Shown here: positions 11,504 through 59,460 of the stretch, one piece after another
How positions within the stretch are numbered: position 1 is the stretch's first letter
Layout: the number at the start of each line of letters is the position of its first letter
NCBI GenBank assembly: GCA_041497895.1
Contig: JBGQHJ010000004.1
Span: forward strand, 298-64,297
Direction of reading: 5' to 3'
DNA: 64,000 bases
DNA from: Candidatus Methylomirabilia bacterium
GTDB taxonomy: Bacteria > Methylomirabilota > Methylomirabilia > Rokubacteriales > CSP1-6
Made by a program: the position numbers and the translations under genes
Notes under the pieces: generated by a model
The model's input: only the letters and a program-made list of their open reading frames with translations
Database searches by the model: none
What the model was told of the DNA's origin: nothing

Positions 11504-13033
11504 ATGATGCGTGTTCTCGGCGCGATCCTGACTCTCGTCCTCGTCACCCTGCTGGGCGCGATCCCCGCCGTCGCCGTCCCGCCGGACGGCACCATGGCCA
11601 TCGGCGTCCACGTGACCCTCGTCTCGCGCTGGCTCGATCCCGGCGAGACGGAAGCGCTCATCACCCCGTTCATGGTGCTCTACGCGCTGCACGACGCGCT
11701 CGTGAAGCCCATGCCCGGGGGGATCATGACGCCGAGCCTGGCCGAGTCCTGGACCGCGTCCAAGGACGGCCTGAGCTACGAGTTCGTCATCCGGAAGAAC
11801 GCGCGCTTCCACACCGGCGACCCGGTCACCGCCGAGGACGTGAAGTTCACGTTCGAGCGGTACAAGGGCAGCGGCGCGAAGCTCCTGAAGGACAAGGTGA
11901 AGGAGATCCAGGTCCTCGCGCCGAACCGGGTGCGCTTCGTCCTCAAGGAGCCGTGGCCCGACTTCATGGCCTTCTACGGAACCTCGGCCACCGGGGCCGG
12001 CTGGATCGTGCCGAAGAAGTACATCGAGAAGGTGGGGGAAGATGGCTTCAAGAAGGCCCCGGTCGGCGCGGGGCCCTACAAGTTCGTCGCCTTCACCCCG
12101 GGTATCGAGCTCACGCTCGAGGCCTTCGGGGACTACTGGCGGAAGGCCCCGCAGGTCAAGCGCCTGGTCATGCGCTCCATCCCCGACGAGACCACTCGCG
12201 CCGCCGCGGTGAAGACCGGCGAGGTCGACGCGGCCTATCTCTTCGGCGGGGCCGTCGCGGAGGACCTGAAGCGCTCGCCGGGAGTCCGGGTGGTGGCCCC
12301 CCTCCTCTACGGCATCTACTGGCTGGACTTCCCGGATCAGTGGGACCCGAAGTCGCCCTGGCACGACCGGCGGGTGCGCCTGGCCGCCAGCCTGGCCATC
12401 GACCGGCCGGCCATCAACCAGGCCGAGATGCTGGGGCTGGGGAAACCGGCCGGCGCCTTCGTGCCTCCGGAGTTCGACTTCGCCCTGCACGTCGATCCGC
12501 CCGCCTTTGATCCGAAGCGGGCCAAGGAGCTCATGGTCGAGGCCGGGTACCCGAACGGCTTCGACGCGGGCGACCTCACCCCCCTGCCGCCCTACACCTC
12601 GCTGGCCGAAGCGGTCGGGGGCTACCTGCAGGCGATCGGCATCCGCAGCTCGGTCCGCACGATGGAGCGCGCCACCTTCTTCTCCGGCTGGCGGGAGAAG
12701 AAGTTCCACGGCCTGATCATCGGCGCCACCGGCGCGGCCGGCAACGCCGCCGCCCGCATCGAGCCCTTCTTCACCAAGAGCGGCATCTACGCCTACGGCA
12801 CCCGGCCGGAAATCGACGATCTCTTCCAGCGGCAGACCAACGAGGGTGACCGCAAGAAGCGCGAGGCCGTGCTCCACCAGATCCAGAAGATCATCGTGGA
12901 CCAGACGATGGTCGCGCCGATCTTCCAGCAGGGCTTCATCTGGGGGGTCGGGTCGCGCGTCGAGCAGGCGGGCGCGGGCCTGATCCAGGGCTACCCGTAC
13001 GCGGCGCCCTGCGAGGACCTGAAGCTCAAGTAG
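11504..13033 (+). CDS. ABC transporter substrate-binding protein, family 5 (peptide/nickel type)
   Basis: 509 aa with signal peptide [24 protein letters not shown]. DppA/OppA-like sequence. Confidence 0.9.
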
Positions 13034-13044
13034 GCCGGGCGGCC

Positions 13045-13917
13045 CTACTCGTCGCGGGGGTCTTCCCGGATGAAGCGACCGGTCTGGAGGTCGCGCAGGG
13101 CCTCCTCGATCTCGGCGCGGGTGTTCATGACGAACGGCCCGTGACGAGCGATCGGCTCGCCGAGCGGGCGCGCCGCCGCGAGGAGGAAGCGCCCGCCCCC
13201 GGGCGCGCCGGCGGCCTCCACGAGATCGCCGTCGCCGAAGACCACCAGCGCCGGCGCGCGCGCCGCGGTCCGCTGCGGGCCGAAGCGCACCTCGCCCTGG
13301 TCCACGTACGCGAAGGCGGTGTGCCCGCGCGGCACCGCCTCGCGGAACGCGGCGCCGTCGGGCAGCGTCACGTCGAGGAACTTCGGCGCCACCGCCAGAC
13401 CGTCGACGGGTCCGGTGAGCCGCCCGCCCGCCGCGTCGCCCGCGACGACGCGTGCCCGCGCGCCGCCGTCGAGCGGGGTCTCGGGCAGATGGCTCGCGGT
13501 CAGGTCACGGTACTTCGGCCGCGTCATCTTCTCGCGCGCGGGCAGGTTGAGCCAGAGCTGCAGCCCGCCGATCCCCTCTGGGCGCACCTGCGGCATCTCC
13601 TCGTGGAGGATGCCGCTGCCGGAGGTCATCCACTGGATGTCGCCGGGCCCGATGCTCCCGTGGTGGCCGAGCGAGTCGCAGTGCTGCACCTCCCCGGTGC
13701 GGACGAACGTCACCGTCTCGATCCCGCGGTGGGGATGGTAGGGAAAGCCGGCCTCGTAGTCCTCGGGGCGGACCGACTCGAAGTGGTCGAGGAGCAGGAA
13801 CGGGTCGAGATGGTCGAGACGCCGCGTGCCGATGCTGCGCCGGAGATGCACCCCGGCGCCTTCCACCACCGGCTCCGGCTTGACGACGTGGGCGACCGGG
13901 CGCGAGGTCTCGCTCAT
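13045..13917 (-). CDS. Pirin family protein
   Basis: 290 aa with the bicupin metal motif FPYHPHRGIETVTFV...WMTSGSGILHEE. Confidence 0.9.
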   Translation of the reverse strand: MSETSRPVAHVVKPEPVVEGAGVHLRRSIGTRRLDHLDPFLLLDHFESVRPEDYEAGFPYHPHRGIETVTFVRTGEVQHCDSLGHHGSIGPGDIQWMTSGSGILHEEMPQVRPEGIGGLQLWLNLPAREKMTRPKYRDLTASHLPETPLDGGARARVVAGDAAGGRLTGPVDGLAVAPKFLDVTLPDGAAFREAVPRGHTAFAYVDQGEVRFGPQRTAARAPALVVFGDGDLVEAAGAPGGGRFLLAAARPLGEPIARHGPFVMNTRAEIEEALRDLQTGRFIREDPRDE

Positions 13918-13926
13918 CGGGAGCCC

Positions 13927-14394
13927 TCAGGCGCGCTCGAGGACGACGACCGGGATCTCCCGCATGGTCCGCGCCTGATACTCGTCGTACGGCGGCCAGA
14001 TCGCGGCCATCGTCTTCCACAGCGCCGGCCGCTCGGCCGGAGTGGCGGTGCGGGCGCGCGCCTTGAACCGGTCCGCCATCACCTGCACCTGCACCTCCGG
14101 CTGCGCGACGAGATTGCCGTACCACGCCGGATGCGCCGGGGCACCGCCGCGGGAGGCCACCACCAGGTAGCGCTCGCCGTCGCGGCCGTAGATGAGCGGA
14201 GTCGTGCGCGACTGGCCGGAGCGCCGGCCGGTCGTGGTCAGCAGGAGGGTCGTCACGCCCTCCCAGACGTGACCGTCCTGGCCGCCGGTCGCGAGGTAGC
14301 GCCGGGCATGCTCTTGCTGCCAGCCGGGCGGCCGGCTCGACGGAGCGGGGCGGGGCGTGGACATGGGTGATACCTCCCGGCGCCAGTCTGCCAC
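13927..14394 (-). CDS. Deazaflavin (F420)-dependent oxidoreductase-like protein, DUF385/nitroreductase family
   Basis: LLLTTTGRRSGQSRTTPLIYGRDGERYLVVASRGGAPAHPAWYGNL is typical of the DUF385/Ddn family. The start may instead be ATG 14364. Confidence 0.8.
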   Translation of the reverse strand: MADWRREVSPMSTPRPAPSSRPPGWQQEHARRYLATGGQDGHVWEGVTTLLLTTTGRRSGQSRTTPLIYGRDGERYLVVASRGGAPAHPAWYGNLVAQPEVQVQVMADRFKARARTATPAERPALWKTMAAIWPPYDEYQARTMREIPVVVLERA

Positions 14395-14431
14395 GGCGCC
14401 GGGCCGCCTGCCACCGGCCCGCGGTCGACGA

Positions 14432-14881
14432 TCAGGGCCGGCGGTGCGGCTCCGGGTGCGCCGAGGTCGCCCCGCCGGTCAGCCACACGAAGCCGCGCAG
14501 GATGTCGGTCTCGGTGACGATCCCGATCAGCTTGCCGCCCTCGGTCACCGGCAGCGCGCCGATCTTGTGGTCGAGCATCAGGACCGCGGCGGCCCGCGCG
14601 TCGCGGTCGGGCCCGACCGTGATCACGGTCTTGGTCATGACCTCGCCCACCGTGAGCTTGGTCAGGAGGTGGTTGACCTCCCACACCGAGAGGCTCGTGG
14701 CCTGCGAGGGCAGGTTGAGCCGGATATCGCGGTCGGTCACGATCCCCACCAGGCGGCCGTCGGAGCCGACGACCAGGAGATGCCGGATCTGCTTCTCCAC
14801 CATCGTGTGGCGTGCCTCGAGCACCCCGGTCTCCACCTTGACCGTGATCGGGTTCCTGGTCATGAGCTCGTCGACTCGCAT
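14432..14881 (-). CDS. CBS-pair domain protein
   Basis: 149 aa with two CBS repeats (MRVDELMTRNPITV...; VGEVMTKTVITV...). GGAGG 8 nt upstream of ATG 14881. Confidence 0.85.
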   Translation of the reverse strand: MRVDELMTRNPITVKVETGVLEARHTMVEKQIRHLLVVGSDGRLVGIVTDRDIRLNLPSQATSLSVWEVNHLLTKLTVGEVMTKTVITVGPDRDARAAAVLMLDHKIGALPVTEGGKLIGIVTETDILRGFVWLTGGATSAHPEPHRRP

Positions 14882-14907
14882 GGGGTTCCCTCCTCTCTCG
14901 GCCTCGG

Positions 14908-15477
14908 TCATACCGGCATGCCCCGGCGCCCGGGGCGCTCGGCCTCCCGCTTCTGGTCCATCGCCTCCGCGCGAATGTGCGCCCGGCACGGCTCGCAGAT
15001 CAGCTCGTCGCTCGGCTTGCCGCACACCAGGCACGGCCGTGGCGGTGTGACCGCGGGGGCCGCCGCGGGGGCGGCCGCGCCGACCGCCTCGAGCGACCCG
15101 GCGGGCACGGTGAGGACCGGACAGGGCGCCAGCCGCACCACCGTCTCGGCGACGCTGCCCAGGATCGCGTGGCTAAAACCCGTGCGCCCGTGCGTGCCGA
15201 GCACGATGAGGCCGATGCCCTTCTCGCGCGCGTAGTCGACGATCGTTCGCCCGGCCAGCCCGGTCCGCAGCGCGGTCTCCACCCGGAGCCCCTCGGCGAG
15301 ACCCTGGCTCGCCCGCGCGAGCTGCTCGCGGAAGGTCGATGGATCGGTGACGGGAGGCACCACGTACAGCACGTGCAGGCGAGCCCGCGCCTCGAGGGCC
15401 ATGCCACGCGCGATCCGGCCCGCCGCCTCGGAGGCGGGGGAGAAGTCGGTCGGGAAGAGAATCTCGGTCGGTCGCAT
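14908..15477 (-). CDS. Universal stress protein with a C-terminal CxxC...CxxC zinc-ribbon tail
   Basis: UspA fold residues 1-125 (ILFPTDFS..., GTHGRTGFSHAILGSVAE), an Ala/Pro linker, then CLVCGKPSDELICEPC. Confidence 0.85.
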   Translation of the reverse strand: MRPTEILFPTDFSPASEAAGRIARGMALEARARLHVLYVVPPVTDPSTFREQLARASQGLAEGLRVETALRTGLAGRTIVDYAREKGIGLIVLGTHGRTGFSHAILGSVAETVVRLAPCPVLTVPAGSLEAVGAAAPAAAPAVTPPRPCLVCGKPSDELICEPCRAHIRAEAMDQKREAERPGRRGMPV

Positions 15478-15491
15478 GTCGTCCTCCTCGC

Positions 15492-15959
15492 TCACTTGAC
15501 CACCAGCACCTCGACGGGCGAGCGCTTGAGCGCGGCCTCGGCGACGCTCCCCAGCAGGAAGTGGGTCACCGCGCCCGCCCCCCTCGCCCCCACCACCAGC
15601 ACGTCCGCCCGCTCCGCGCGGAGCGCGGCCAGCAACTCCGGCAGCGGGAGCCCGGTCCGCACGACGCCGCGGGCGCGCCAGCCGGCCTTCGCCAGCAGGG
15701 CGGCGGCGCCGTCGACCTGGCGCTGGGCCACCGACCGGCGGATCCGCTCCATGGAGGCCGCCTGCGCCGCGATCTGCGCGCGCATCGGAGCGGGCACGAG
15801 CGGCATCGCCGGCAGCCGCACCGGCTCGACCACGCGCACGCACGTCACCCGGCCGCCCCGCGGGGGACGGAGCCGCGCCACGAAGGCGGCGGCCCGGCGC
15901 GAGTGCGCCGACCCGTCCAGCCCGACCACGATACGGCGGTACCTCCGCGGAGCGGCCAT
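15492..15959 (-). CDS. Universal stress protein
   Basis: 155 aa. RIVVGLDGS..., VVGARGAGAVTHFLLGSVAE. Confidence 0.85.
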   Translation of the reverse strand: MAAPRRYRRIVVGLDGSAHSRRAAAFVARLRPPRGGRVTCVRVVEPVRLPAMPLVPAPMRAQIAAQAASMERIRRSVAQRQVDGAAALLAKAGWRARGVVRTGLPLPELLAALRAERADVLVVGARGAGAVTHFLLGSVAEAALKRSPVEVLVVK

Positions 15960-15968
15960 CGAGCTCTC

Positions 15969-18059
15969 CTAGGCGCCGAGGCTGGCCCGCGCGTCGACCA
16001 CGATCGCGCCGTCCGGGCTCGCCAGCAGAGGGTTGATCTCGATCTCTCGCAGCTCGGGGAGATCCACCATCAGCTGCGAGAACCGGCTGATGATGCCGGC
16101 GAGCGCGAGGCGATCCACCGGCCGCTCGCCGCGGATGCCGCGGAGCAGCGGCGCGATACGGAGCTCGTCGAGGAGCGTCGCCGCCTCGTCGGGAGAGACC
16201 GGGGCCAGGCACACCGCGGTGTCGCCCATGACCTCGACGTAGATGCCGCCGAGCCCGACCATCAGGACCGGGCCCCACTGCGGATCGCGCACGCCGCCCA
16301 GCAACAGCTCCTTGCCGGTCGGGGCCATCGCCTCGACGAGCAGCCCGCGGATCGTCGCCTGCGGCCGCTCCACCGCGACCCGCGCCAGCATGGCCGCCGC
16401 CGCCTCGCGCACCGCGCGCGCGTCGCGCAGGCCGAGGGCCACGCCGCCCACCTCGGTCTTGTGGGTGATGTCGGGCGAGACGATCTTCAGGGCCACCGGG
16501 AAGCCGAGACGCTCCGCGGCGGCCGCCGCGTCGTCCGCACTCTTGACCACGCGGCCCTCGACGCCGGGAATACCGTAGGCGGTGAGCAGCGGCTGCAGCT
16601 CGGGCGTGCCGAGCTGCCGCGCCCCCGGGCCGCCCTGCTCACCGAGCCAGGCGCGGGCCGCGGCCGGGTCGACCGACGGGACGAACGGGCTCGGGTCCCT
16701 GAGCCGGCGCTCGCTGAGCTTCGCCATGCCGGCCAGCGTCTTGACGGCCGGCTCGGGGAAGGCGTAGCACGGGATGCCGGCCTCCTCGAGGGTGCGGATC
16801 CCGGGGGCCACGCGCGCGCCTCCCACGAAGGCCGCGACCACCGGGATCGACCAGCCGAGCGTCGCGCCCGCGATGGTGCGCGCCACGCTGGCCGCGTCGG
16901 TCGCGGCCTGCGGCGTCAGGAGCACGAGCATCGCGTCGGCGCTCTCGCTGCCCAGGGTGTGCAGCGCGTGGCCGTACCGGCGCGCGTCGGCGTCGCCCAC
17001 CAGGTCCACCGGGTTGCCGAGCCCGGCCGTCGCGGGCAGCCCCTCGGCAAGTCGCCGGCGCAGCGGCTCGGCGGGCGGCTCCATGGTGAAGGCGGCGGCC
17101 CGCGCCGCGTCCGTGGCGACGATGCCGAGACCGCCCCCGTTGGTCACCACCACCAGACGGCGGCCGCGCGGCATCGGCTGGCTCGCGAGCCCGCGCGCGA
17201 CGTCGAACAGCTCCTCGACGGTGTCGACGCGCAGCGCGCCCGCCTGCCGGACCGCCGCGTCGAAGGCCCGGTCGGATCCGGCAAGCGCGCCGGTGTGCGA
17301 GGCGACCGCGCGCGCGCCCTCGGGGGAGCGCCCCGCCTTCAGCACCACCACCGGCTTGATGAGGGCGGCGCGCCGGAGCGCGTCGAGGAACCGGCGGCCG
17401 TCGGCCACGCCCTCGATGTAGCACGCCACCACGCGGGTCTCCGCGTCGGTGGCCACCGCATCGAGCAGGTCGCTCTCGTTGACGTCGGCCTGGTTGCCGA
17501 GCGAGGCGAAGAGGGAGAAGCCGACCCGGCGGTCGCGCGCCCAGTCGAGGATCGCCACCGCGAGCGCGCCGGAATGGGAGAGGAAGGCGATGCCGCCGGG
17601 CTCGGGCATGCCGGGGGCGAACGTCACGTTGAGCCGCCTGGTCGGCCGGATCCAGCCGAGGCAGTTCGGTCCCAGCACGCGGATCGGCTGGTCCCGCAGC
17701 CACTCGCGCAGCTGGGCCTCCCGCCGCGCGCCCTCCCCGCCGATCTCCCGGAAGCCGGCCGAGATCACCACCGCGCCGCCCACTCCCTTGGCCACGCACT
17801 GCACGAGCGCGGGCAGCACGTCGACCGCGGGCAGCGCGATCACGGCCAGGTCCACCGGGCCCTCGGCGTCCTGGATCCGCGGCACCGCGGCCAGGCCCTG
17901 CACCGTGCTCGCGCGCGAGTTGACCGGGATGATGCGGCCGCGGAAGCCGGCCGAGCGCAGGTTGGCGACGACGCTGCCGCCGACCTTGAACGGATCGCGC
18001 GAGGCCCCGATCACCGCCACGCTGCCCGGGTCGAGGAACGGAACGAGCGAGCCGCTCAC
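15969..18059 (-). CDS. ADP-forming acetyl-CoA synthetase / acyl-CoA synthetase (NDP-forming), fused alpha-beta type
   Basis: 696 aa. N-terminal CoA-binding and succinyl-CoA-synthetase-like domains (VAVIGASRDPFKVGG, SHSGAL), with a C-terminal ATP-grasp domain. Confidence 0.9.
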   Translation of the reverse strand: MSGSLVPFLDPGSVAVIGASRDPFKVGGSVVANLRSAGFRGRIIPVNSRASTVQGLAAVPRIQDAEGPVDLAVIALPAVDVLPALVQCVAKGVGGAVVISAGFREIGGEGARREAQLREWLRDQPIRVLGPNCLGWIRPTRRLNVTFAPGMPEPGGIAFLSHSGALAVAILDWARDRRVGFSLFASLGNQADVNESDLLDAVATDAETRVVACYIEGVADGRRFLDALRRAALIKPVVVLKAGRSPEGARAVASHTGALAGSDRAFDAAVRQAGALRVDTVEELFDVARGLASQPMPRGRRLVVVTNGGGLGIVATDAARAAAFTMEPPAEPLRRRLAEGLPATAGLGNPVDLVGDADARRYGHALHTLGSESADAMLVLLTPQAATDAASVARTIAGATLGWSIPVVAAFVGGARVAPGIRTLEEAGIPCYAFPEPAVKTLAGMAKLSERRLRDPSPFVPSVDPAAARAWLGEQGGPGARQLGTPELQPLLTAYGIPGVEGRVVKSADDAAAAAERLGFPVALKIVSPDITHKTEVGGVALGLRDARAVREAAAAMLARVAVERPQATIRGLLVEAMAPTGKELLLGGVRDPQWGPVLMVGLGGIYVEVMGDTAVCLAPVSPDEAATLLDELRIAPLLRGIRGERPVDRLALAGIISRFSQLMVDLPELREIEINPLLASPDGAIVVDARASLGA

Positions 18060-18478
18060 GCGTGGGGCCCCTCGGCGATCGCCAGCAGCGCCTCGAGGGC
18101 GTCCGCGGCCGTGAAGACGCCCACCACCTGCTCCCCGTCCCAGACCGGGAGCGCGCCGATCCGGCGCTCGAGCATGAGCCGCGCCGCCACCGTCATCGGC
18201 ACCCCGCGCCCCACGCTGACCGGGCCCTCGCTCATGATGGAGCGCACCGGCGCGGCGAGCGCGGGCGACCCCGGCTCGTGGCCGACGAGCCGCCGCAGGT
18301 CACGGTTGGAGAGGATGCCGGTGAGCACCGGGCCGTCCATCACGAGCAGGTGCCGCACGGCGGCGCGATCCATCAGGGCGACGGCGACGTGGACCGGGGT
18401 GTCCTCGGCCACCGCCACCGGCGGCTTGCTCATCCAGTCGCCCACCGTCCCGCCGCGCGCCCCGCCGTCCGGCGTCAT
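18056..18478 (-). CDS. CBS-pair domain protein
   Basis: 140 aa with two CBS repeats. The stop overlaps the start of the acetyl-CoA synthetase gene. Confidence 0.85.
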   Translation of the reverse strand: MTPDGGARGGTVGDWMSKPPVAVAEDTPVHVAVALMDRAAVRHLLVMDGPVLTGILSNRDLRRLVGHEPGSPALAAPVRSIMSEGPVSVGRGVPMTVAARLMLERRIGALPVWDGEQVVGVFTAADALEALLAIAEGPHA

Positions 18479-18483
18479 GGCGC

Positions 18484-18924
18484 TCAGGCGGGCTCGCGCA
18501 CCGTGAGCACGGGGCACGGCGCGAGCCGGATCACCCGATCGGCCACGCTGCCGAGGAGCGCGCGGTCGATCCCGCCGCGCCCGTGGGTGCCGATGACGAT
18601 CAGGTCGGCCCGCTCGTCCACCGCGAGCGTCACGATCTCCTGGTAGGCCACGCCGCTGCGGAGCGCGGCGCGCGCCGAGAGGCCCTCGGCCCGCGCCTTG
18701 GCCGCCCACTCCTCGAGCGCGGCGTCGGCGAAGCTCCGGGCCGCCTCGAAGACCTCGCGCACCTTGGGCATGATGAACGGGCCCTCGCGGAACAGCGGAG
18801 CCTCGGTCAGCACGTGGGTCAGCACCAGCTCCGCGCCCGACATGCCGGCGAGCCGCTGCGCGAGACGCCACGCGTCCTCCGAGCACGACGAGAAGTCGGT
18901 CGGGACGATGATCCGGTAGAACAT
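18484..18924 (-). CDS. Universal stress protein
   Basis: 146 aa. IIVPTDFSSCSE..., GTHGRGGIDRALLGSVAD. Confidence 0.9.
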   Translation of the reverse strand: MFYRIIVPTDFSSCSEDAWRLAQRLAGMSGAELVLTHVLTEAPLFREGPFIMPKVREVFEAARSFADAALEEWAAKARAEGLSARAALRSGVAYQEIVTLAVDERADLIVIGTHGRGGIDRALLGSVADRVIRLAPCPVLTVREPA

Positions 18925-18928
18925 GGTG

Positions 18929-19360
18929 CTAGGCCTCCCCGATCGGGATCATGGTGCCCCGGGCCGCGGGCGTCTTGGGCAGCGTCACGGTCAGGAGCCC
19001 GTTCTTGACCGTCGCGGTCACCCGCGCCGCGTCCACCGCCACCGGCAGACGCAGGGTGCGGACGAAGACCCCGCAGACGCGCTCGGCGTGATGATAGCGC
19101 GCCCCGGGCTCCCGGCGCTTCTCCCCCTTGATCGTGAGCAGGCCGTCGTGGAGCGCGATCTCGACGTCCTGCCGCTCCAGTCCCGGCACCTCGAGAGTCG
19201 CGACCAGGCTGTCGCCGGTCTCGGCGACATCCAGGCTGGGTACCCAGTCCCCCAGCGCCGGCAGCTCCGTGCGCTTGACCCGCGCGATGCGATCGAGCAG
19301 CCGGTCCATCTCCCGCTGCAGGCTTTCGATTCCGGCCCACGGCATCAGCCCGCGCATCAT
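18929..19360 (-). CDS. Hsp20/alpha-crystallin family small heat-shock protein
   Basis: 143 aa. WVPSLDVAETGDSLVATLEVPG...GLLTIKGEK...NGLLTVTLPK. Confidence 0.9.
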   Translation of the reverse strand: MMRGLMPWAGIESLQREMDRLLDRIARVKRTELPALGDWVPSLDVAETGDSLVATLEVPGLERQDVEIALHDGLLTIKGEKRREPGARYHHAERVCGVFVRTLRLPVAVDAARVTATVKNGLLTVTLPKTPAARGTMIPIGEA

Positions 19361-19408
19361 GGTGGTCTTCCTCCCTCCTCGAGCGTCACGTGCCCGCCCT
19401 CGAAGATT

Positions 19409-19424
19409 TGCAACGCGAGTGCCA
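19409..19424 (-). promoter_or_regulatory. Sigma-54 promoter (-24/-12), perfect consensus, upstream of the hsp20-USP-CBS operon
   Basis: The minus strand reads TGGCAC-tcgcg-TTGCA. Predicted +1 is ~19398, 38 nt before the hsp20 ATG at 19360, with a GGAGG-rich leader. Confidence 0.75.
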
Positions 19425-19475
19425 CGAGAGACCCCCGTCGATTCGGGCAGTTACGGCCGGCGGCGGCGCGACCGC

Positions 19476-19493
19476 CGAGGCGGCCCCGCCTCG
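19476..19493. promoter_or_regulatory. Inverted repeat CGAGGCGG-cc-CCGCCTCG; candidate enhancer (UAS) for the hsp20 sigma-54 promoter
   Basis: 8-bp arms, 52-69 nt upstream of the -24 element. The arms resemble the TGAGGCGG/CCGCCTCA arms at 27557-27587 and 61149-61166. Confidence 0.3.
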
Positions 19494-19581
19494 CTGTGGC
19501 GACGGCGCCCCAGGACCTCTTGAAGCCACCCGGCCCTTGGCCCACAATGCAGGCGTTCATGATCCCGCGCGCCGAGGCCAC

Positions 19582-21747
<2,166 letters not shown>

Positions 21748-21774: not shown

Positions 21775-23208
21775 TCAGTCCCGGTCCTCGCGCTTTGCGG
21801 TCTCGGCGCGCTCGCGATGGAGGCTGCGTGCGTGGAGCAGCAGGCCGAGCGCCAACCACAGCGCGATCACCGCCACCGGCACCGCGATCAGCCGCGGCCA
21901 GACGAGGCCGAGGAGGGCCAGCGCCACGAGCGCGACCCCGGCGCCGCCCATGATGCGCGCCTCGGCCGGACCCAGCGCGCGGCGCCCGGTCACCGCGGCA
22001 CTCACCGCGCTGCCGATGCTCACCGCCCCGGCGGCGGCCCGACCGGCGCTGCCTCGCCGCCGGGCCCGGCGGCGAGGCGAGGGCGCGGTCCGCACCACGC
22101 GCGAGCGCGCCGAGAGGGTGATCTCGGTGGCGCGCGTGAGGTCGTCGAGGTACATCCGCTCCATGGCCTGCGCGAAGCCTTCGTCCTCCACCGCCACGTC
22201 GAGCTCCCAGTTCCCGAACCAGGACTGCAGGTTCAGGTTGGTCGAGCCCACGCGGGCCCAGCGACCGTCCGCGACCGCGGTCTTGGCGTGCAGCATGGAT
22301 CCGTTCCACTCGTAGACGCGCACGCCCGCCTCGAGGAGCGGGCGATAGCCGGCCCGCGACAGGCCCCGCAGCAGCCAGATGTCGCTGGCGCCGGGCACCA
22401 GCAGGCGCACGTCGACGCCGTCGCGGGCCGCCGAGCTCAGGGCCTGCACATAGGTGGCCGTCCCGACGAAGTAGACGTCGGTGAGCCACAGCGTCCGCCG
22501 CGCCGCCGCCGCGATCAGCTGGTCCAGGCGGTACACCGCGGCGGTGCCCGGGGCGCTCGCGATCACCCGCATCGCCATGTGGCCGGCGGGCGCGGCGCGA
22601 TCACGGGCCAGCCGCGAGGTGCCGGGAGCCGGCGACCCGGCGGCCAGCGCCCACATCCGGGCGAACGCCTCCTCGAGCGCGGCCACCGCTGGCCCGCGCA
22701 CCGCCACGCCGGTGTCGCGCCATGGCTCGATCCCGCGCGCGGGATCGCCCACCCAGTGGCGGCCCACGCAGAGGCCGGTGACGAACGCGACCCGCCCGTC
22801 GACCGCGAGCATCTTCCGGTGATCGCGCGCCAGCCAGGCGAACGGGCTCGACAGGCCCGGCGGATTGAAGCCGCGCACCTCGACGCCCGCCGCGCGCAGG
22901 TCGCGCCAGAACCGCCGGCCGGTCTTGCCGACCGCGCCGAGCCAGTCGTAGATCACGCGCACGCGCACCCCCGAGCGGGCGCGCGCCGCGAGCGCGCGGG
23001 CGAACTCCTGTCCGGTCGCGTCGTCGTGGATGATGTAGCTCTCGAAGTGGATCGTGTGCTCCGCCGCCCGGATGGCCCCGAGCCACGCCGGGTAGTTCTG
23101 GCCCGCGTCCTTGAGCAGGCGCACCTCGTTGCCGGTGATGAGGGGTGCTCCCGACGCGCGGGCGAACGCTTGCTCGACGACCGGGAAGGTCTTCCGGGGC
23201 TCGTCCAC
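21775..23208 (-). CDS. Phospholipase D family protein / cardiolipin synthase-like
   Basis: 477 aa with two HKD motifs (HRKMLAVDG; HAKTAVADG) and C-terminal transmembrane helices. Confidence 0.9.
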
Positions 23209-25964: not shown

Positions 25965-25980
25965 TGCAACGTGAGTGCCA
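25965..25980 (-). promoter_or_regulatory. Sigma-54 promoter, perfect consensus, upstream of the dksA-like / cytochrome c / pfkA operon
   Basis: The minus strand reads TGGCAC-tcacg-TTGCA. Predicted +1 is ~25954, 29 nt before ATG 25925. Confidence 0.75.
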
Positions 25981-26118
25981 TGCGGTAAGGCTGAAGAATC
26001 AGGACGTTGGCAGGGCCGACGCACACCTGCGTGGGGAGGGCGTGCCTCAGTCGGGGCCGGGCGGCCCCGAACCGGCGGGCCGCCGCTCGGGTCACGCCAC
26101 CAGGCCGTCACTCGCCCA

Positions 26119-26941: not shown

Positions 26942-27424
26942 CTACTTCTTCAACAGACCGAGTGCCTCGCGGGCCTTGCGGGCCGAGAGGGTCATGTCAC
27001 CCTTCTTGCAGGCGGCATCCGCCTGCTGGACGAGCGCGCCGGCCTGCTTCACCCGCGGCGCCTGGATGTCCTGCCCGCGCGGCACCGGAGGCTCCTGCTG
27101 GCTGCGGGGCGCCTGAATGTCCTGCTGGCGCGGTGCCTGAATGTCCTGCTGCCGCGGTGCCTGAATGTCCTGCTGCCGCGGTGCCTGGATGTCCTGCTGG
27201 CGCGGTGCCTGAATGTCCTGCTGCCGCGGTGCCTGAATGTCCTGCGACCGGGCGCCCGCCTGACTGCGAGGAGACTGGATGTCCTGGCTCTTGGCCTGGG
27301 CGCTCTTGAGCGCGGCCTTGGCCTGGGCCAGCTCCGCCGGACATGGATCGGCAGCTCGGGCCACTCCGGGCGTCGTGAGCGCGATGATCCCGAGACCGAG
27401 CACGACAGCGACGACTTGCCTCAT
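26942..27424 (-). CDS. Secreted tandem-repeat protein with eight QDIQ(A/S)PR repeats; unknown function
   Basis: ATG 27424 is preceded by AAGGAGA. Signal peptide MRQVVAVVLGLGIIALTTPGVARA. Repeats are flanked by short helical regions each containing Cys. GC3 is high in this frame. Confidence 0.7.
   Translation of the reverse strand: MRQVVAVVLGLGIIALTTPGVARAADPCPAELAQAKAALKSAQAKSQDIQSPRSQAGARSQDIQAPRQQDIQAPRQQDIQAPRQQDIQAPRQQDIQAPRQQDIQAPRSQQEPPVPRGQDIQAPRVKQAGALVQQADAACKKGDMTLSARKAREALGLLKK
27111..27254 (-). repeat. Tandem 24-bp repeat x6 (plus-strand unit gcctgaatgtcctgctgccgcggt) inside the repeat-protein CDS
   Basis: Copies start at 27111, 27135, 27159, 27183, 27207 and 27231. Degenerate copies are at ~27060 and ~27273. 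In frame, 8 aa per unit (QQDIQAPR). Confidence 0.9.
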
Positions 27425-27459: not shown

Positions 27460-27475
27460 TGCATTCCGAGTGCCA
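27460..27475 (-). promoter_or_regulatory. Sigma-54 promoter upstream of the repeat-protein / DUF2267 / CBS operon
   Basis: The minus strand reads TGGCAC-tcgga-ATGCA. Predicted +1 is ~27449, 25 nt before ATG 27424. Confidence 0.65.
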
Positions 27476-27556
27476 CGCCACTCGGGTCGGCGGGTGCGAG
27501 AAAACGGGACGTTGGGCGGAGCCCGCGCGGCTCGGCTGGGGCGGCCCGCTCCGGAG

Positions 27557-27587
27557 TGAGGCGGCGATGCCCCGCCGCCCCGCCTCA
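27557..27587. promoter_or_regulatory. Inverted repeat TGAGGCGG-N15-CCGCCTCA; either the rtcB terminator hairpin or a UAS for the 27460 sigma-54 promoter
   Basis: 8-bp arms. The right arm overlaps the rtcB stop (27585-27587). It lies 82-112 nt upstream of the -24 element. The same 8-mers form the palindrome at 61149-61166. Confidence 0.35.
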
Positions 27588-29054
27588 GCCCTTGATGTTG
27601 CCGATCGGCGTGAGTGAAACCACGCGGCGGGAGATGTCGAGGCGGTGCAGGGTGTCGACCACCGCGGTCAGGTCCTTGTAGGCGAACCCGGCTTCCTCGG
27701 CCACTCCGGACTTGGACGCCGCGCGCACGACGATCCCGCGCTCCGCCATGCTCTTGATCAGGGTCTCCCCCCCCACTCGGCGCTTGGCCTGCGCGCGCGA
27801 CATGGTGCGGCCCGCGCCGTGGGCCGTCGAGCCCCAGGTCTCGGCCATGGCCCGTGCGGTCCCGACCAGGAGCGCGGAGCCGGTCTCCATGGAGCCGCCG
27901 ATGATCACCGGCTGGCCGATCTCCCGGTAGTCGGCGGGCACGTCGGGCTCGCCCGGCCCGAAGGAGCGCGTGGCGCCCTTGCGGTGCACGACCAGCTCCA
28001 GCGCCCGGCCGTCCACGACGTGGCGCTCGAGCTTGGCCGTGTTGTGGCAGACGTCGTAGACCACGGAGAGGCCGAGGGCATGCGCGTCGCGCCCGAACAC
28101 CTTGGAAAACACTTCCCGGATCCGGTGGGTGATCACTTGCCGGTTGGCGAACGCGGTGTTCGCCGCGGCCGTCATGGCCCCGAAGTAGGCCTGCCCTTCC
28201 TTCGACCGAAACGGCGCGCACGCGAGCTCGCGGTCCCGCACGCTGATGCCGTACTGCGGCATCACCCGGTCGAACATCTTGAGGTAGTCGGTGCCGACCT
28301 GATGACCGAAGCCGCGCGAGCCGCAGTGGAGCATGACGAAGATCTGACCGGGGCCGTCCACGCCGAGGACGCGCGCCACGCGCTCGTCGTGGATGGCGCC
28401 GGGCCGCACCACCTGGATCTCCAGGTAGTGGTTGCCGGAGCCCAGCGTCCCGAGCTGCTCCATCCCCCGCTCGAGCGCCCGCGCGCTGACCTGCTCGGGA
28501 TCGGCCCCGGGCAGGCAGCCGCCACTCTCGATGTGCGCGAGATCCTCGGGCCACGCGTAGCCGCGCGCCACGCACCAGCCGGCGCCCTCCACCATCACCT
28601 TGCGGAACTCCGACCCGGAGAGGCGCACGAAGCCCTTCGCGCCGACCCCGGCCGGCACCGAGCGGAACAGGGCATCGATCAGCTGGGGCAAGCGCGGCCG
28701 CACCTCGGCCTCGGTGAGGCCGGTCCGCACGAGCCGCATCCCGCAGTTGATGTCGAACCCGATGCCGCCCGGCGAGATCACCCCCGAGTCGGCGCGGAAC
28801 GCGGCGACCCCGCCGATCGGGAAGCCGTACCCCCAGTGGCCGTCGGGCATGCAGAGCGACGCGCGCACGATGCCGGGCAGGCAGGCCACGTTGGTGACCT
28901 GCTCGAACACGCCGTCGTCCATCTGCTCGAGCAACGGGCCCGAGGCGTAGAGACGCGCCGGCACCAGCATGCCGGGCTTCGCCTGCGCCGGGATCTCCCA
29001 GACGCACTCCTCGACCCGCCGGGCCGCGCCGCGCAGCGATTCGGTGATCTTCAT
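27585..29054 (-). CDS. rtcB: RNA-splicing ligase RtcB (3'-phosphate/5'-hydroxyl RNA ligase)
   Basis: 489 aa. GFDINCGMRL, GSGNHYLEIQ, HCGSRGFGHQ, HRKGATR and STAHGAGR motifs. Confidence 0.95.
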   Translation of the reverse strand: MKITESLRGAARRVEECVWEIPAQAKPGMLVPARLYASGPLLEQMDDGVFEQVTNVACLPGIVRASLCMPDGHWGYGFPIGGVAAFRADSGVISPGGIGFDINCGMRLVRTGLTEAEVRPRLPQLIDALFRSVPAGVGAKGFVRLSGSEFRKVMVEGAGWCVARGYAWPEDLAHIESGGCLPGADPEQVSARALERGMEQLGTLGSGNHYLEIQVVRPGAIHDERVARVLGVDGPGQIFVMLHCGSRGFGHQVGTDYLKMFDRVMPQYGISVRDRELACAPFRSKEGQAYFGAMTAAANTAFANRQVITHRIREVFSKVFGRDAHALGLSVVYDVCHNTAKLERHVVDGRALELVVHRKGATRSFGPGEPDVPADYREIGQPVIIGGSMETGSALLVGTARAMAETWGSTAHGAGRTMSRAQAKRRVGGETLIKSMAERGIVVRAASKSGVAEEAGFAYKDLTAVVDTLHRLDISRRVVSLTPIGNIKG

Positions 29055-29061
29055 GCGTCTC

Positions 29062-29490
29062 CTAGATGTCGATGACCACTCGCGCGCGCCAGCCTCCCTC
29101 GACGGGCGCGAGCGCGAACTGGTGGAAGGTGACCGCCTTGGGGTCGGCCCCCAGCGCGGTACGCGGGGGATCGATGATACCGCCCTGGACGTCGGCGGTC
29201 AGCCGGTACGGCCCCTCCCCCGTCACGCGCACCACCGCGTGGGGAAAGACCTGGGCGTCCCGGTCCTTGAGAAAGATCATCTCGGACAGCCAGTCGTACA
29301 GCAGCAGGTCGCGCTCCGCGGCCTCGAGCTCGATCCGCCGCTCGACCGTGATCGCCAGCGTGCCCGGATCCACCATGAGGCGGGCGATGGCCGCCGCCGC
29401 GGTCTCGAAGAGATCGTCGAGGGACTTCCCCTCGATCTCGACCGCGCAGTCGGCCAGCGCCACGTCCTCCAGGAACGTGTAGCGCCCCAT
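29062..29490 (-). CDS. Archease (RtcB cofactor)
   Basis: 142 aa. Starts MGRYTFLEDVALADCAVEIEG (archease N-terminal D...ADxA motif), with KAVTFH near the C-terminus. Located immediately upstream of rtcB. Confidence 0.85.
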   Translation of the reverse strand: MGRYTFLEDVALADCAVEIEGKSLDDLFETAAAAIARLMVDPGTLAITVERRIELEAAERDLLLYDWLSEMIFLKDRDAQVFPHAVVRVTGEGPYRLTADVQGGIIDPPRTALGADPKAVTFHQFALAPVEGGWRARVVIDI

Positions 29491-34787: not shown

Positions 34788-34803
34788 TGCAACCGGGGTG
34801 CCA
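34788..34803 (-). promoter_or_regulatory. Sigma-54 promoter, perfect consensus, upstream of the DUF2892 / RND efflux / DUF302 / archease / rtcB operon
   Basis: The minus strand reads TGGCAC-cccgg-TTGCA. Predicted +1 is ~34777, 48 nt before ATG 34729. Confidence 0.75.
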
Positions 34804-34914
34804 CTGCTCTTCTGCCGTGGAATCCGAGACTTGCGGCGGCGAGCGGCGGCCCGGGCTGGGGAGCGCGCGCCTCAGCCGGGACCGCGGCGCCCCGGGCGCA
34901 CGCAGGCTACCGGC

Positions 34915-37440
<2,526 letters not shown>

Positions 37441-39177
37441 CTAGTCGTCGCCCCCGTAGCGCACCGTGATCAGCGCGTCGATCGCCTCGCGCAGATCCGG
37501 CAGCTCGCCGCGCCGCCAGCGCGTCTCGGCCTTGCCGAGCTGTCGCGCCAGCTCGCTGTCGGCGAATACGTCGCGCACCCAGCGCGAGAAGTCGCCGCGC
37601 TCGGCGTGGTACGCGAGCAGCTCTTCCGGCGTGATGGCCACCACGCGGCGAAAGGCCTGCAGGCTGTTGGCCGAACCGAGCACCCGGCCGCCGGCCCCCC
37701 GGAACAGGAACTCGCGGCCCGGGGGCACGTGCGAATCCACGTACTTGGTCAGGTGGCGCACGTGGACCGTCTGGCGCGGCGCGGCCACGAAGGTCACCGC
37801 GGTCGCCCGGCCGCCGGGGTCGCGCTGGACGATGAGGAACTGCCCGCGTGGCAGCCGCGAGAGCGCGGCCGACACCGCCTCGCTCCCGTCGATGGCGGGT
37901 AGGGTGGAATGGAGAAAGGCGAGCTCCTCGGGCACCGTGGTCCGCGCGAGGACGAATACGTCCACCGCCCGGATGACGGCCGCGCGCACCCACCGCGGCC
38001 GGTAGGTCACGAAGCAGAAGCCGCGGTCCTCGAGACCGAGCGCGTCGCTCGCGATGCCGCCGTCGTGCACCAGGTAGTGAGCCTCGTCGACCAGCACCCA
38101 GTGCGGACGCCCGACGCGCCGCCGGATCTCGCGGATGCGCCGCAGGGCCCGTTCGATCAGGAGGACCTTCTCGGCGTGGGACAGCGTGGAGAGGTCGAGG
38201 ACCGCCGAGGCCGTGGGGACGTGCTGGAGATGATCCAGCACCCGATCCACGTCCGCCGCCTCGGACACTTCGGCCCACGCGACGCCCGGCAGGCGCGAGA
38301 GCACACGGTAGTCCCCCTCCGGATCGATCACGCAGACCGCGTAGCGCGCAGCGACCAGCCGCTCGACGAGGGCGCCGGCGAGCCAGGACTTGCCGGAGTG
38401 CGGATCGCCGTGGATCAGCACGTTGATCCGGCGGGCCGGGATGGTGATCGGCTCGCTGGTGGTCGCGCCCCAGCCGAGCGAGATCCGGTGGCGTGGTGAC
38501 TGCTGCACCGCGAGCTGGTCCTCGAGCACCGGCCCGGCGATGGCGGCCCCGACGTCGGCGCCCGCGCCGCCCGGCAAGACCCAGTCCACGCGGTCGCGGA
38601 CGACCGCGATGCTGTTGCCCGGGCAGGCGCTGAAGCCGCACGCGTCGAAGAGGGCGAGGTCGTTCTCGGCGTCGCCCAGGGCCAGCACGTCGTGCGGCGA
38701 GAGCTCGAGAAATCGCAGCACCTGCTGGACCCCGGAGCCCTTGGACACGCCGGAGGGCAGCAGCATGAGGGCGGCGCGGTTCGGGATCAGGTCCCGGGTC
38801 ACGTCGGCCGCGCGCAGCGCCTCGCGCACCCCCGCCTCGTCGCCACGGCCGGTGCCGACGATGACCCGGCCCACCTGGTAGTAGATGCCCCGCCGCTCGA
38901 GCTCTCCGAGCAGCCGGCCGGGCACCGGGGGTCCCTGGTCGCGGATCATCGCCGAGCCGGGATAGTAGATCACCGCGCCGTTCTCGGCCACCACGCCGTC
39001 GAAGAGCTCCAGGCAGTCGCACACGCGCGTGAGCTCGAAGAAGGTGCGCCCGGTCACGAGCATCAGCCGGAGGCCCGCCTTCTTCGCCTGCTCGAGCGCG
39101 GCGCGCACCGACGGACCGATCCGGTCATCGACTGCGAGCGTGCCGTCGAAATCGCAAGCGAGCGCCTTGAAGAACAC
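37441..39177 (-). CDS. Fusion protein: N-terminal HAD-IIB (Cof-like) phosphatase plus C-terminal HerA/FtsK-like P-loop ATPase domain
   Basis: 578 aa. HAD motif I ACDFDGTLA and motif IV GDAENDL. Then Walker A GDPHSGKSW and Walker B VLVDEAHYL. GTG start. The stop abuts the mgtA start. Confidence 0.8.
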   Translation of the reverse strand: MFFKALACDFDGTLAVDDRIGPSVRAALEQAKKAGLRLMLVTGRTFFELTRVCDCLELFDGVVAENGAVIYYPGSAMIRDQGPPVPGRLLGELERRGIYYQVGRVIVGTGRGDEAGVREALRAADVTRDLIPNRAALMLLPSGVSKGSGVQQVLRFLELSPHDVLALGDAENDLALFDACGFSACPGNSIAVVRDRVDWVLPGGAGADVGAAIAGPVLEDQLAVQQSPRHRISLGWGATTSEPITIPARRINVLIHGDPHSGKSWLAGALVERLVAARYAVCVIDPEGDYRVLSRLPGVAWAEVSEAADVDRVLDHLQHVPTASAVLDLSTLSHAEKVLLIERALRRIREIRRRVGRPHWVLVDEAHYLVHDGGIASDALGLEDRGFCFVTYRPRWVRAAVIRAVDVFVLARTTVPEELAFLHSTLPAIDGSEAVSAALSRLPRGQFLIVQRDPGGRATAVTFVAAPRQTVHVRHLTKYVDSHVPPGREFLFRGAGGRVLGSANSLQAFRRVVAITPEELLAYHAERGDFSRWVRDVFADSELARQLGKAETRWRRGELPDLREAIDALITVRYGGDD

Positions 39178-39191: not shown

Positions 39192-39207
39192 AGCAATCCT
39201 AGTGCCA
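39192..39207 (-). promoter_or_regulatory. Sigma-54 promoter upstream of the HAD-ATPase / mgtA operon
   Basis: The minus strand reads TGGCAC-tagga-TTGCT. Predicted +1 is ~39181, only ~4 nt before GTG 39177, so the transcript is near-leaderless. Confidence 0.7.
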
Positions 39208-39351
39208 CGCCGGCCGGTTCGGAAGACCCCGTTGGATGGCGATCATGGCCCGACCGGAGCGGGACACCCCTGCCCCACTGTCGTGGGAATTCCGTGCGGG
39301 CGGACCGGCTGGGCGAGGAGCGGATCGTCGATTCGGCGCGCGCTTGGGGCC

Positions 39352-39367
39352 GGGCACCACGCTTGCA
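39352..39367 (+). promoter_or_regulatory. Sigma-54 promoter upstream of the pal-like / gdh / DUF3300 / DUF2950 / OPT operon
   Basis: GGGCAC-cacgc-TTGCA. Predicted +1 is ~39378, 3 nt before ATG 39381. No Shine-Dalgarno is visible. Confidence 0.65.
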
Positions 39368-49170: not shown

Positions 49171-49904
49171 GCCGCCCGCCCCGCGTCCACCGCGAGCCCG
49201 GCCCGGGCGTCCCGGGGGTGCTCGATCCGCTCGTCGCCGACCAGCTCGCCGTCGCGGAAGCTCAGCACGCGCTGCGCGAACTGCGCGATGTCGGGCTCGT
49301 GGGTCACGAGCACGATGGTGAGACCGGCCCGGTGCAGGTCCTGGACGACCGCCATGATCTCGGCGCTGGTGCGCGTGTCGAGGTTGCCGGTCGGCTCGTC
49401 GGCCAGGAGGAGGATGGGATCGTTGACGAGGGCGCGCGCGATCGCGACCCGCTGCTGCTGGCCTCCCGAGAGCTGCCCGGGCCGGTGCTGGGCCCACCGC
49501 TCGAGCCCGACCATCGCGAGCTTGCGCCGCGCCCGCTCCCGGCGCTCGCGCCCGGGGACATCCCCGTAGAGCAGCGGCATCTCCACGTTGGCCTGGGCCG
49601 TGATGCGCGGGAGCAGGTTGAACTGCTGGAACACGAAGCCGACGCGCCGGTGCCGGATGGCCGACAGCGCATCGTCGTCGAGGCTCGACACGTCGCGGCC
49701 CTCCAGCAGGTACCGCCCCGCCGTCGGCGTGTCGAGGCACCCGAGAATCGTCATGAACGTCGACTTCCCGGAGCCGGACGGGCCCATGACCGCCACCATC
49801 TCCCCGGCCCGGATCTCGACCGAGACGCCCCGCAGCGCGTGCACCGTGTGGTCGCCGAGGGAATAGTCCTTCGAGAGCCCCTGGGTCGTGATCAGCGGAA
49901 TCAG
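49167..49904 (-). CDS. ABC transporter ATP-binding protein (MacB/LolD-like); apparently a non-canonical (CTG/ATT) start
   Basis: Walker A GPSGSGKST, signature LSGGQQQRV, Walker B LLLADEP. The homology-defined N-terminus (L)IPLITTQGLSKDY begins at CTG 49904, 5 nt after GAGGAGGAG. Confidence 0.85.
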   Translation of the reverse strand: MIPLITTQGLSKDYSLGDHTVHALRGVSVEIRAGEMVAVMGPSGSGKSTFMTILGCLDTPTAGRYLLEGRDVSSLDDDALSAIRHRRVGFVFQQFNLLPRITAQANVEMPLLYGDVPGRERRERARRKLAMVGLERWAQHRPGQLSGGQQQRVAIARALVNDPILLLADEPTGNLDTRTSAEIMAVVQDLHRAGLTIVLVTHEPDIAQFAQRVLSFRDGELVGDERIEHPRDARAGLAVDAGRAA

Positions 49905-50104: not shown

Positions 50105-50118
50105 GGTGCCCGCCTCCC

Positions 50119-59408: not shown

Positions 59409-59460
59409 GGCGAGGCGCCCACGATCACGGACACTTCTGATGCGAGCATGGAGGCACGCG

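Follow-up and report, generated by a model that had tools for sequence, protein, structure and literature searches.

The DosR/DevR regulon of Mycobacterium tuberculosis and its OsdR counterpart in Streptomyces place a set of hypoxia and dormancy genes under a LuxR-type regulator that acts with sigma-70 at a DosR box and receives its input from the GAF-haem kinases DevS and DosT. A comparable island of about 50 genes, the lxa locus of the soil bacterium Burkholderia cenocepacia, is activated by low oxygen, and its authors noted the convergence with DosR (PMC3721108). In Myxococcus xanthus, the NmpRSTU system controls an experimentally established hypoxia regulon through an NtrC-like activator and sigma-54, with paired dyads upstream of -24/-12 promoters and a haem protein as sensor (PMC11841059). 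Here we describe a nine-gene operon, running from a small heat-shock gene (hsp20) to a pirin gene, in a 64,000-nucleotide stretch of the metagenome-assembled genome of Candidatus Methylomirabilia bacterium (Methylomirabilota; Rokubacteriales; assembly GCA_041497895.1, contig JBGQHJ010000004.1, positions 298 to 64,297), referred to below as the window. From its sequence and that of its relatives, we consider on balance that this operon probably leads a sigma-54-dependent stress-survival regulon in a Rokubacteria genome.

The island around the operon resembles each of these systems in part. The parallel with DosR drawn in the original prediction, which had been made from the window alone, holds by family for Hsp20, universal stress proteins (USPs) of the ATP-binding type, stand-alone CBS proteins and a P2-type cation ATPase (CBS2 of the operon matches Rv2626c at 8e-10 and USP1 matches Rv2623 at 6e-13), whereas the phosphofructokinase activity, the reductase and the anion channel or transporter are functional analogues only. 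PfkA (PF00365) here and PfkB of M. tuberculosis represent different protein families, as do the FNT channel and the NarK2 transporter, and the DUF385/Ddn-type reductase is non-homologous to the Acg-type nitroreductases of the DosR regulon. Input would in both cases come through a haem kinase, of the GAF type in M. tuberculosis and of a presumed PAS type here. The island differs from DosR in its sigma-54 promoters and enhancer, with neither the regulator nor the box, in its additional genes (an ADP-forming acyl-CoA synthetase, pirin, RtcB-archease, PCMT and efflux) and in its phylum.

The lxa locus is similar in having six USPs, an alpha-crystallin, a nitroreductase, a phosphofructokinase-like kinase, a cation ATPase and one palindromic motif at many intergenic points, but that motif is Fnr/Anr-like (TGA-N6-TCA) and is used by CRP/Fnr regulators with sigma-70 (PMC3721108), whereas the motif here is a sigma-54 enhancer. 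The NmpR targets likewise include a CBS-domain protein, a single-domain ATP-type USP and a P-type ATPase; however, the NmpR sites (GCGCA-N5-TGCGC) lie 14-15 bp apart, whereas those found here abut, and the NmpR regulon is small and centred on a cbb3 oxidase, HemN and hemerythrin, without Hsp20, acyl-CoA synthetase, Pfk or Pps (PMC11841059). The NmpR sensor is a globin-coupled kinase in a four-part phosphorelay, in contrast to the CHASE3-PAS-PAS kinase described below, and the NmpR activator is encoded within its own regulon, whereas none was found in the window or its extensions. The concept has precedents in NmpR/sigma-54 (PMC11841059) and lxa (PMC3721108), and the system is best filed as a low-oxygen or growth-arrest regulon of a kind already known, with novelty in the enhancer motif, in the combination of sensor and sigma factor, and in its occurrence in an uncultured phylum. 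Our literature search found nothing on sigma-54 in Rokubacteria and nothing on an acyl-CoA synthetase of this type linked with USPs.

The window has a G+C content of about 72%, and raw lists of its open reading frames are crowded with shadow frames; the gene map used here was obtained by third-codon-position G+C (GC3) calling and checked against Pfam. Exactly nine genes, tightly packed, occupy 13045-19360 on the minus strand, in the layout, order and families that had been predicted (Table 1), and a convergent gene beyond the 3' side of the operon ends at 13033. The junctions range from -4 to 67 nt, four of them overlapping or spanning 9 nt or less, among them a 4-nt overlap between the stop codon of the first CBS gene and the start of the fused alpha-beta acyl-CoA synthetase gene (ACD, for its ADP-forming type); wider gaps precede CBS2 (26 nt) and DUF385 (37-67 nt). 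All three USPs of the operon have, as read from the translation, the G-x2-G-x9-G-S motif of the ATP-binding class of MJ0577, which is also the closest solved structure of USP1. CBS2 is nearest to the CBS part of AcuB-like proteins. The eighth gene product is, by its profile and structure matches, a member of the Ddn-family F420H2-dependent reductases (PF04075, 157.6 bits against a cut-off of 22; TIGR00026, 115 against 46; Ddn structures, 3e-28). USP3 carries a C-terminal tail of about 60 residues (14908-15060) with a CxxC-x8-CxxC pattern, here CLVCG-x7-CEPC, that has the look of a zinc ribbon and is kept in orthologues, whose matches span 189-195 residues.

The perfect sigma-54 promoter claimed for this operon, TGGCACTCGCGTTGCA, is present ahead of hsp20 and belongs to an enriched class. 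Sites of the form TGGCAC-N5-TTGC with at most one mismatch number 12 in the window against 2.6 expected, a count reached in none of 100 shuffles, and the sites with a weighted score of at least 19 out of 20 are without exception (10/10) intergenic and aimed at the nearest gene, typically 35-85 nt before its start codon. When the promoter was compared across eight orthologous loci (L001-L005, L007, L010 and L014, with ACD 76-94% and the kinase 60-90% identical), the TGGCAC and GTTGCA boxes proved invariant in all eight, and the 5-nt spacer and the flanks varied. Dependence of the operon on sigma-54, as predicted from this element, is very likely.

Anchoring all promoters on the -24 box brought out an upstream activating sequence (UAS), a 20-bp palindrome of the form CYGRGGC-N6-GCCYCRG, mostly found as an abutting pair whose members begin about 90 and 70 nt before the T of TGGCAC, which puts their centres near -106 and -86 from the expected transcription start. 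The two offsets recur in relatives, and the CTGGGGC...GCC portion is invariant in orthologues. Six tandem pairs occur in the window against 0.01 expected from 200 dinucleotide shuffles, and of the nine sites that deviate from the motif at no more than one position, eight fall within intergenic regions carrying a sigma-54-like promoter. An IHF-like element separates the UAS pair of the nine-gene operon from its -24 box; orthologues keep it as GTAAC-N4-TTGAAT, which differs at one position from the reverse complement of the IHF consensus WATCAANNNNTTR, and by comparison with that known consensus it would be an IHF site. Dyad-symmetric upstream sites, an intervening IHF-like site and a -24/-12 element together are, as far as sequence can tell, the textbook architecture of an enhancer-dependent sigma-54 promoter. 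The promoter is kept in orthologues and the UAS/IHF-like module is shared; the sigma-54 wiring is far better supported than could have been known when it was proposed.

The module precedes at least 10 operons in the window, the nine-gene operon among them (Table 1), and in four intergenic regions (near 39.2, 51.8, 59.4 and 61.1 kb) a single palindrome pair stands between two divergent sigma-54 promoters. The island inventory given in the original prediction was confirmed by Pfam: five USPs, seven CBS proteins, two Hsp20, PfkA, PpsA, a malic enzyme, a P-type ATPase, an FNT channel and a DUF385 protein. To the right of the window (L083), three further promoters lead to a CBS gene with a Peptidase_M50 gene, to a GYD protein gene, and to an HU/IHF-like gene followed by a CBS gene. 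In relatives, the module is also found ahead of genes for USP, CBS with P-type ATPase, DUF2267, lipoate ligase, COX2-like and multicopper oxidase proteins. The HU/IHF family gene (Bac_DNA_binding; L083 6210-7000, together with the CBS gene) has a sigma-54-like promoter with a UAS, and the factor that may bend the promoters could therefore itself be a member of the regulon.

The closest relatives of ACD come from Rokubacteria/Methylomirabilota genomes assembled from metagenomes, and an identical protein occurs in two Methylomirabilia assemblies. What is kept in the gene neighbourhoods of this clade is the divergent histidine kinase gene followed by USP-CBS-ACD-USP-USP-CBS, not the full nine-gene set: hsp20 stands in first place in L007 and L014, the closest relatives, and in no others, and DUF385 and pirin are found in some relatives only, directly after USP2 in L006 and L008. 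By this distribution we regard Hsp20, the F420H2-dependent reductase and pirin as additions specific to certain lineages. A USP or CBS gene stands beside ACD in 15/15 Rokubacteria loci versus 3/64 loci of other phyla; a universal USP-CBS-ACD module is ruled out by these counts, the linkage being essentially confined to Rokubacteria.

ACD aligns end to end with its nearest solved relative, the ADP-forming 4-hydroxybutyrate-CoA ligase 8wzu (1e-140). It has the three domains of an NDP-forming acyl-CoA synthetase and both catalytic histidines, one in the phosphohistidine loop ASHTGALAGS of the alpha part and the other in DITHKTEVGG of the beta part. A protein acetyltransferase of the Pat/PatZ type is ruled out by the absence of a GNAT domain and the presence of the catalytic histidine. 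Of the proposed name, ADP-forming acetyl-CoA synthetase, the term ADP-forming is supported by both histidines; acetate as substrate is not established, and "acetyl-CoA synthetase" is a reasonable guess. In our reading the enzyme would run in the ATP-forming direction. According to a passage of the M. xanthus report, anaerobic survival of Pseudomonas aeruginosa involves AckA-Pta together with the USPs PA3309 and PA4352 (PMC11841059); there, in pyruvate fermentation, USP-assisted substrate-level ATP formation goes through AckA-Pta, whereas here a fused ACD with both phosphohistidine sites would take that part.

Divergently from the operon, and in synteny with it, lies a gene for a sensor histidine kinase. 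Its transmitter (DHp/CA) is closest to ZraS (9jfj, 7e-42) and AtoS (338 bits), two kinases that pair with sigma-54 activators, and suggests a partner of that type; the kinase scores below every NCBIfam equivalog cut-off. Of the 14 solved-structure matches of its second PAS domain (PAS2), 13 are haem domains of FixL or DosP, the best match being an uncharacterised sensor kinase. In the alignment, a PAS2 histidine that every kinase orthologue retains falls on the histidine of the FixL segment RSRHDSY, which we take to be the proximal haem ligand. These matches suggest that haem serves, putatively, to sense O2 or NO. The partner of FixL is FixJ, a LuxR-type regulator working with sigma-70, whereas the kinase here joins a FixL-like PAS2 to a ZraS/AtoS-like transmitter; ZraS and AtoS in turn have no haem PAS, and the combination with CHASE3 is different.

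The original prediction had assigned control to RpoN and an enhancer-binding protein (EBP) rather than to a LuxR-type regulator, and the sigma-54 wiring and the exclusion of LuxR-type control both stand: Pfam recognises no NarL/LuxR-type regulator among the window proteins, and the window has three DosR boxes (core GGGAC-N4-GTCCC), none of them in a promoter region, where 8.4 would be expected. The NmpR site GCGCA-N5-TGCGC is found nine times against 13 expected, again never in promoter regions, and the window encodes no globin domain. Only two one-mismatch matches to the Fnr/Anr box TTGAT-N4-ATCAA are present (4507 and 51252), both inside genes and amounting to no enrichment, and no CRP/Fnr protein is encoded in the window.

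For the activator, its link with the kinase and the signal, we infer the following scheme. Sigma-54 RNA polymerase would wait in a closed state at TGGCAC-N5-TTGCA until a putative NtrC-type EBP, bound to the two abutting palindromes, is brought to it by an IHF-like bend near -50 and the promoter opens. The nine genes would then be transcribed as a unit, with translational coupling at several junctions, and the same module would drive at least nine other island operons, supplying further USP, CBS and Hsp20 proteins, PfkA, PpsA, malic enzyme, a P-type ATPase, efflux with RtcB-archease, and the protein-repair enzyme PCMT. The most likely input would be the conserved divergent histidine kinase, for which we judge the chances evenly balanced. 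ACD would make ATP by substrate-level phosphorylation when respiration fails, and the ATP-binding USPs and the CBS proteins, as adenine-nucleotide sensors, would tune or protect it.

Several observations weigh against this reading. Neither an EBP nor rpoN was found in the 64-kb window or in its extensions of about 4 kb to the left (L082, with PilZ, lipase and MliC genes) and about 9 kb to the right (L083, where further sigma-54 promoters precede more CBS, GYD and HU-like genes), and for this reason the EBP and its link to the kinase are conjecture. In Pfam searches of the roughly 65 window proteins Sigma54_activat had no match, and the GAFTGA motif is absent from six-frame translations of the window and of relatives, except L009; this clade member encodes an NtrC-type EBP with GAFTGA next to its ACD, and the lineage therefore uses sigma-54 activators. 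In PAS2, the distal, O2-binding arginine of FixL was not securely aligned by HMMER, and a nearby arginine is R or Q in orthologues; the assignment of a conserved O2-binding arginine was dropped on these grounds. The kinase also has CHASE3 and a first PAS domain, with ligands not assigned. Three of the genes, hsp20, DUF385 and pirin, fall outside what relatives keep of the operon. ACD falls below every NCBIfam equivalog cut-off (499 bits against 567 for TIGR02717, 409 against 1200 for NF045494 and 533 against 1300 for NF045493), no enzyme leading from pyruvate to acetyl-CoA was seen in the island, and the 67-nt gap ahead of DUF385 leaves room for a separate start. Single UAS sites with up to two mismatches are only weakly enriched (38 against 26.6 expected), being common in DNA this rich in GC, and the motif alone at that threshold was set aside as a regulon signal. 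What carries the signal is the pairing of sites in tandem, their constant offset, and those matches that have one mismatch or none.

That O2 or energy limitation is the signal is, from the sequence features, a little short of an even chance. A role in hypoxia or dormancy that we infer is nonetheless well motivated, since it is favoured both by the FixL-like PAS domain and by the respiratory and fermentative genes that the regulon contains. The regulon could instead be real but respond to carbon or nitrogen starvation, desiccation or osmotic stress, heat, or envelope or metal stress, with the likeness to DosR reflecting a generic growth-arrest toolkit. ZraS senses envelope and metal stress, and the kinase pairs an extracytoplasmic CHASE3 domain with a ZraS-like transmitter; the island encodes RND efflux, OmpA, a PLD/cardiolipin-synthase-like protein, an Aas-like acyltransferase, MlaC, PCMT and RtcB, which point to envelope and macromolecule maintenance; and USP, Hsp20 and CBS genes respond to many stresses. 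However, PAS2 is most like the haem O2 sensors FixL and DosP and keeps the proximal histidine, and the regulon holds cytochromes c, the FNT channel, PfkA and ACD, joined in relatives by COX2-like and Cu-oxidase genes, a content that suggests a switch between respiration and fermentation. We hold a signal of this other kind to be rather unlikely. The fullest version of the oxygen-related reading, a clade-wide Rokubacteria programme for dormancy or hypoxia that would extend over more than 60 kb and take in at least 13-17 operons, and in which a FixL-like haem-PAS kinase would act through a new sigma-54 EBP on abutting CYGRGGC-N6-GCCYCRG palindromes and USP/CBS-regulated ACD would be the maintenance-energy engine, is put forward tentatively.

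A more distant alternative is that the operon is mainly metabolic and serves the activation of organic acids, ACD forming CoA esters of acetate or hydroxy-acids, with the USP and CBS proteins as its dedicated regulators and no dormancy module at all. There is a model for such control in AcuB, the regulator of AcsA. This CBS protein senses energy charge and Ap4A to control acetyl-CoA synthesis (PMC13121692, PMC13039410). CBS2 is nearest to AcuB-like proteins, the USP-CBS-ACD linkage is specific and conserved, and among characterised enzymes ACD comes closest to the 4-hydroxybutyrate-CoA and 3-hydroxypropionate-CoA ligases, which operate in the synthetase direction. Yet the identity of ACD to the archaeal ligase is moderate and all equivalog cut-offs are missed, no genes of carbon-fixation or fatty-acid pathways adjoin the operon, its first gene in this genome encodes Hsp20, and its promoter and UAS are common to many stress and repair operons. 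We regard this alternative as improbable.

The nine genes would likely form a single transcript, as far as can be predicted from their arrangement. Internal sigma-70 promoters, which would have spoken for independent transcription, did not turn up: a scan of 12900-19700 found no sigma-70-like promoter and no intrinsic terminator with the E. coli consensus, which fits high-GC phyla poorly. That the sigma-54 promoter serves only the first few genes, with DUF385-pirin and perhaps USP3-CBS2 having promoters of their own, would accord with this poor fit, with the gaps before CBS2 and DUF385, and with the mobile sub-module behaviour of DUF385-pirin in relatives, where it is absent or attached elsewhere, but is doubtful given nine genes on a single strand in a cluster that closes at a convergent gene, the close or overlapping junctions, the lack of strong sigma-54-like sites inside the operon, and folds in the 67-nt CBS2-DUF385 spacer, the longest, and at the operon 3' end that are no stabler than shuffled controls.

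Other genes behind the module deserve mention. The first gene behind the promoter at 27460-27475 (26942-27424, minus strand) encodes a secreted protein of about 160 residues in which a signal peptide is combined with some ten QDIQAPRQ repeats in tandem; it was missed by GC3 gene calling, and the deposited annotation (L080 708-1118) gives it no Pfam family. Archease and the RNA ligase RtcB (27585-29490, minus strand) close the sigma-54-driven string that begins with a YgaP-like gene. The rtcBA genes of E. coli are likewise sigma-54-dependent, through RtcR; no RtcR-like gene is present here. The P2-type cation ATPase operon opens with a 555-residue fusion (37441-39108, minus strand) of a HAD phosphatase (Hydrolase_3/S6PP-like) and a HerA/AAA-like P-loop domain. 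Between the USP and ABC transporter genes of the second Hsp20 operon lies a 73-residue Cys-rich reading frame (49901-50122, minus strand; CPEC...CPCGG...CDHCG) without a Pfam match. Two small membrane proteins (59647-59901 and 61325-61594, plus strand) are paralogues with the common motif RILxxLxVSLAGLxVGGTMIVAGQLVSVLLDQR; neither matches Pfam, and each has its own sigma-54 promoter, with a UAS shared with the divergent operon.

In distant Rokubacteria (L012 11557-13866; L003 1518-2645), the module stands before a COX2/cupredoxin gene followed by a 544-residue reading frame, and also before a two-domain multicopper oxidase gene; the former frame may be a candidate haem-copper oxidase subunit I, and the oxidase may be NirK-like. 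Within the window, a 949-residue fusion of PP-binding, AMP-binding and acyltransferase domains (52380-55229, plus strand; Aas-like) is followed by a DUF308 gene and, together with a PLD-like gene (21775-23208) and a CarS-like gene (56585-57103), suggests membrane-lipid remodelling in the island. A DUF3300-DUF2950 pair followed by an OPT oligopeptide transporter gene (41236-43295, plus strand) has no sigma-54 promoter of its own that we could recognise.

Table 1. Positions of the operon, its control elements, the kinase gene and the other copies of the module (window coordinates).
Feature	Position	Strand	Remarks
Gene 1, Hsp20 small heat-shock protein, 143 aa	18929-19360	-	PF00011, 5.5e-20
Gene 2, universal stress protein (USP1), 146 aa	18484-18924	-	Pfam Usp
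Gene 3, stand-alone CBS pair, 140 aa	18056-18478	-	GC3 and Pfam
Gene 4, fused alpha-beta NDP(ADP)-forming acyl-CoA synthetase (ACD), 696 aa	15969-18059	-	CoA_binding, Succ_CoA_lig, ATP-grasp_5
Gene 5, universal stress protein (USP2), 155 aa	15492-15959	-	Pfam Usp
Gene 6, universal stress protein (USP3) with Cys-rich tail, 189-195 aa by start codon chosen	14908-15495	-	Pfam Usp
Gene 7, stand-alone CBS pair (CBS2), 149 aa	14432-14881	-	Pfam
Gene 8, deazaflavin (F420H2)-dependent reductase, DUF385/Ddn family, 145-155 aa	13927-14394	-	Pfam F420H2_quin_red
Gene 9, pirin (bicupin), 290 aa, last gene	13045-13917	-	Pirin, Pirin_C
Sigma-54 -24/-12 element of the operon	19409-19424	-	perfect match; 49 nt ahead of hsp20 ATG
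IHF-like element GTAAC-N4-CGAAT	19441-19454	-	between UAS and -24 box; conserved columns G137, A139, A140, G147, A149, T150
Tandem UAS of the operon, two abutting 20-bp palindromes	19475-19513		presumed EBP binding site
Candidate weak sigma-70-like promoter of the kinase gene, TTGAAG-17-CACAAT	19520-19548	+	scores 8/12, below the scan flag; conserved in orthologues
Divergent, syntenic sensor histidine kinase	19582-21747	+	CHASE3, PAS, PAS (FixL/DosP-like), HisKA, HATPase (Pfam)
Module before DksA/TraR, cytochrome c, PfkA	25965-26070	-	UAS pair 26031-26070; -24/-12 25965-25980
Module before secreted repeat protein, DUF2267, CBS	27460-27575	-	promoter 27460-27475
Module before YgaP-like, HlyD, AcrB, DUF302, YgaP-like, archease, RtcB	34788-34895	-	promoter 34788-34803
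Divergent sigma-54 promoters with weaker UAS between	39192-39367		HAD/P-loop and P-type ATPase (-); OmpA-like and Glu/Leu dehydrogenase (+)
Divergent promoters with one common UAS pair (51803-51841)	51736-51897		51736-51751 (-), Hsp20, PCMT, USP, ABC transporter, PpsA, cytochrome c; 51882-51897 (+), CBS gene
Weaker -24/-12 TGGCAGGCCGGATGCA with perfect UAS before CBS gene	57893-58008	-	UAS 57989-58008 plus 57969-57988
Divergent promoters with one UAS pair (59449-59488) between	59393-59568		malic enzyme (-); small membrane protein (+)
Divergent promoters with UAS 61138-61177 between	61046-61257		CBS-CBS (-); small membrane protein (+)

Rokubacteria and other Methylomirabilota are widespread in soil and groundwater but uncultured, and their persistence is known from gene lists only; Rokubacteria are abundant in soil and grow slowly. 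The regulon map derived here from sequence adds a precise promoter, a 40-bp enhancer, a candidate gas-sensing kinase and more than 10 operons, which could serve as metatranscriptomic markers of a dormant or energy-limited state and as DNA bait for the activator. The USP-CBS-ACD-USP-USP-CBS core leads to a biochemical hypothesis, that nucleotide-sensing USP and CBS proteins control an ATP-forming ACD, which fits the finding on AcuB (PMC13121692). If the clade-wide programme is true, it would add to DosR, Fnr/Anr-lxa and NmpR one more independent form of regulation that converges on the set of Hsp20, USP, CBS, Pfk and P-type ATPase. The map also makes a clear case for asking why unrelated bacteria keep assembling this set under different regulators.

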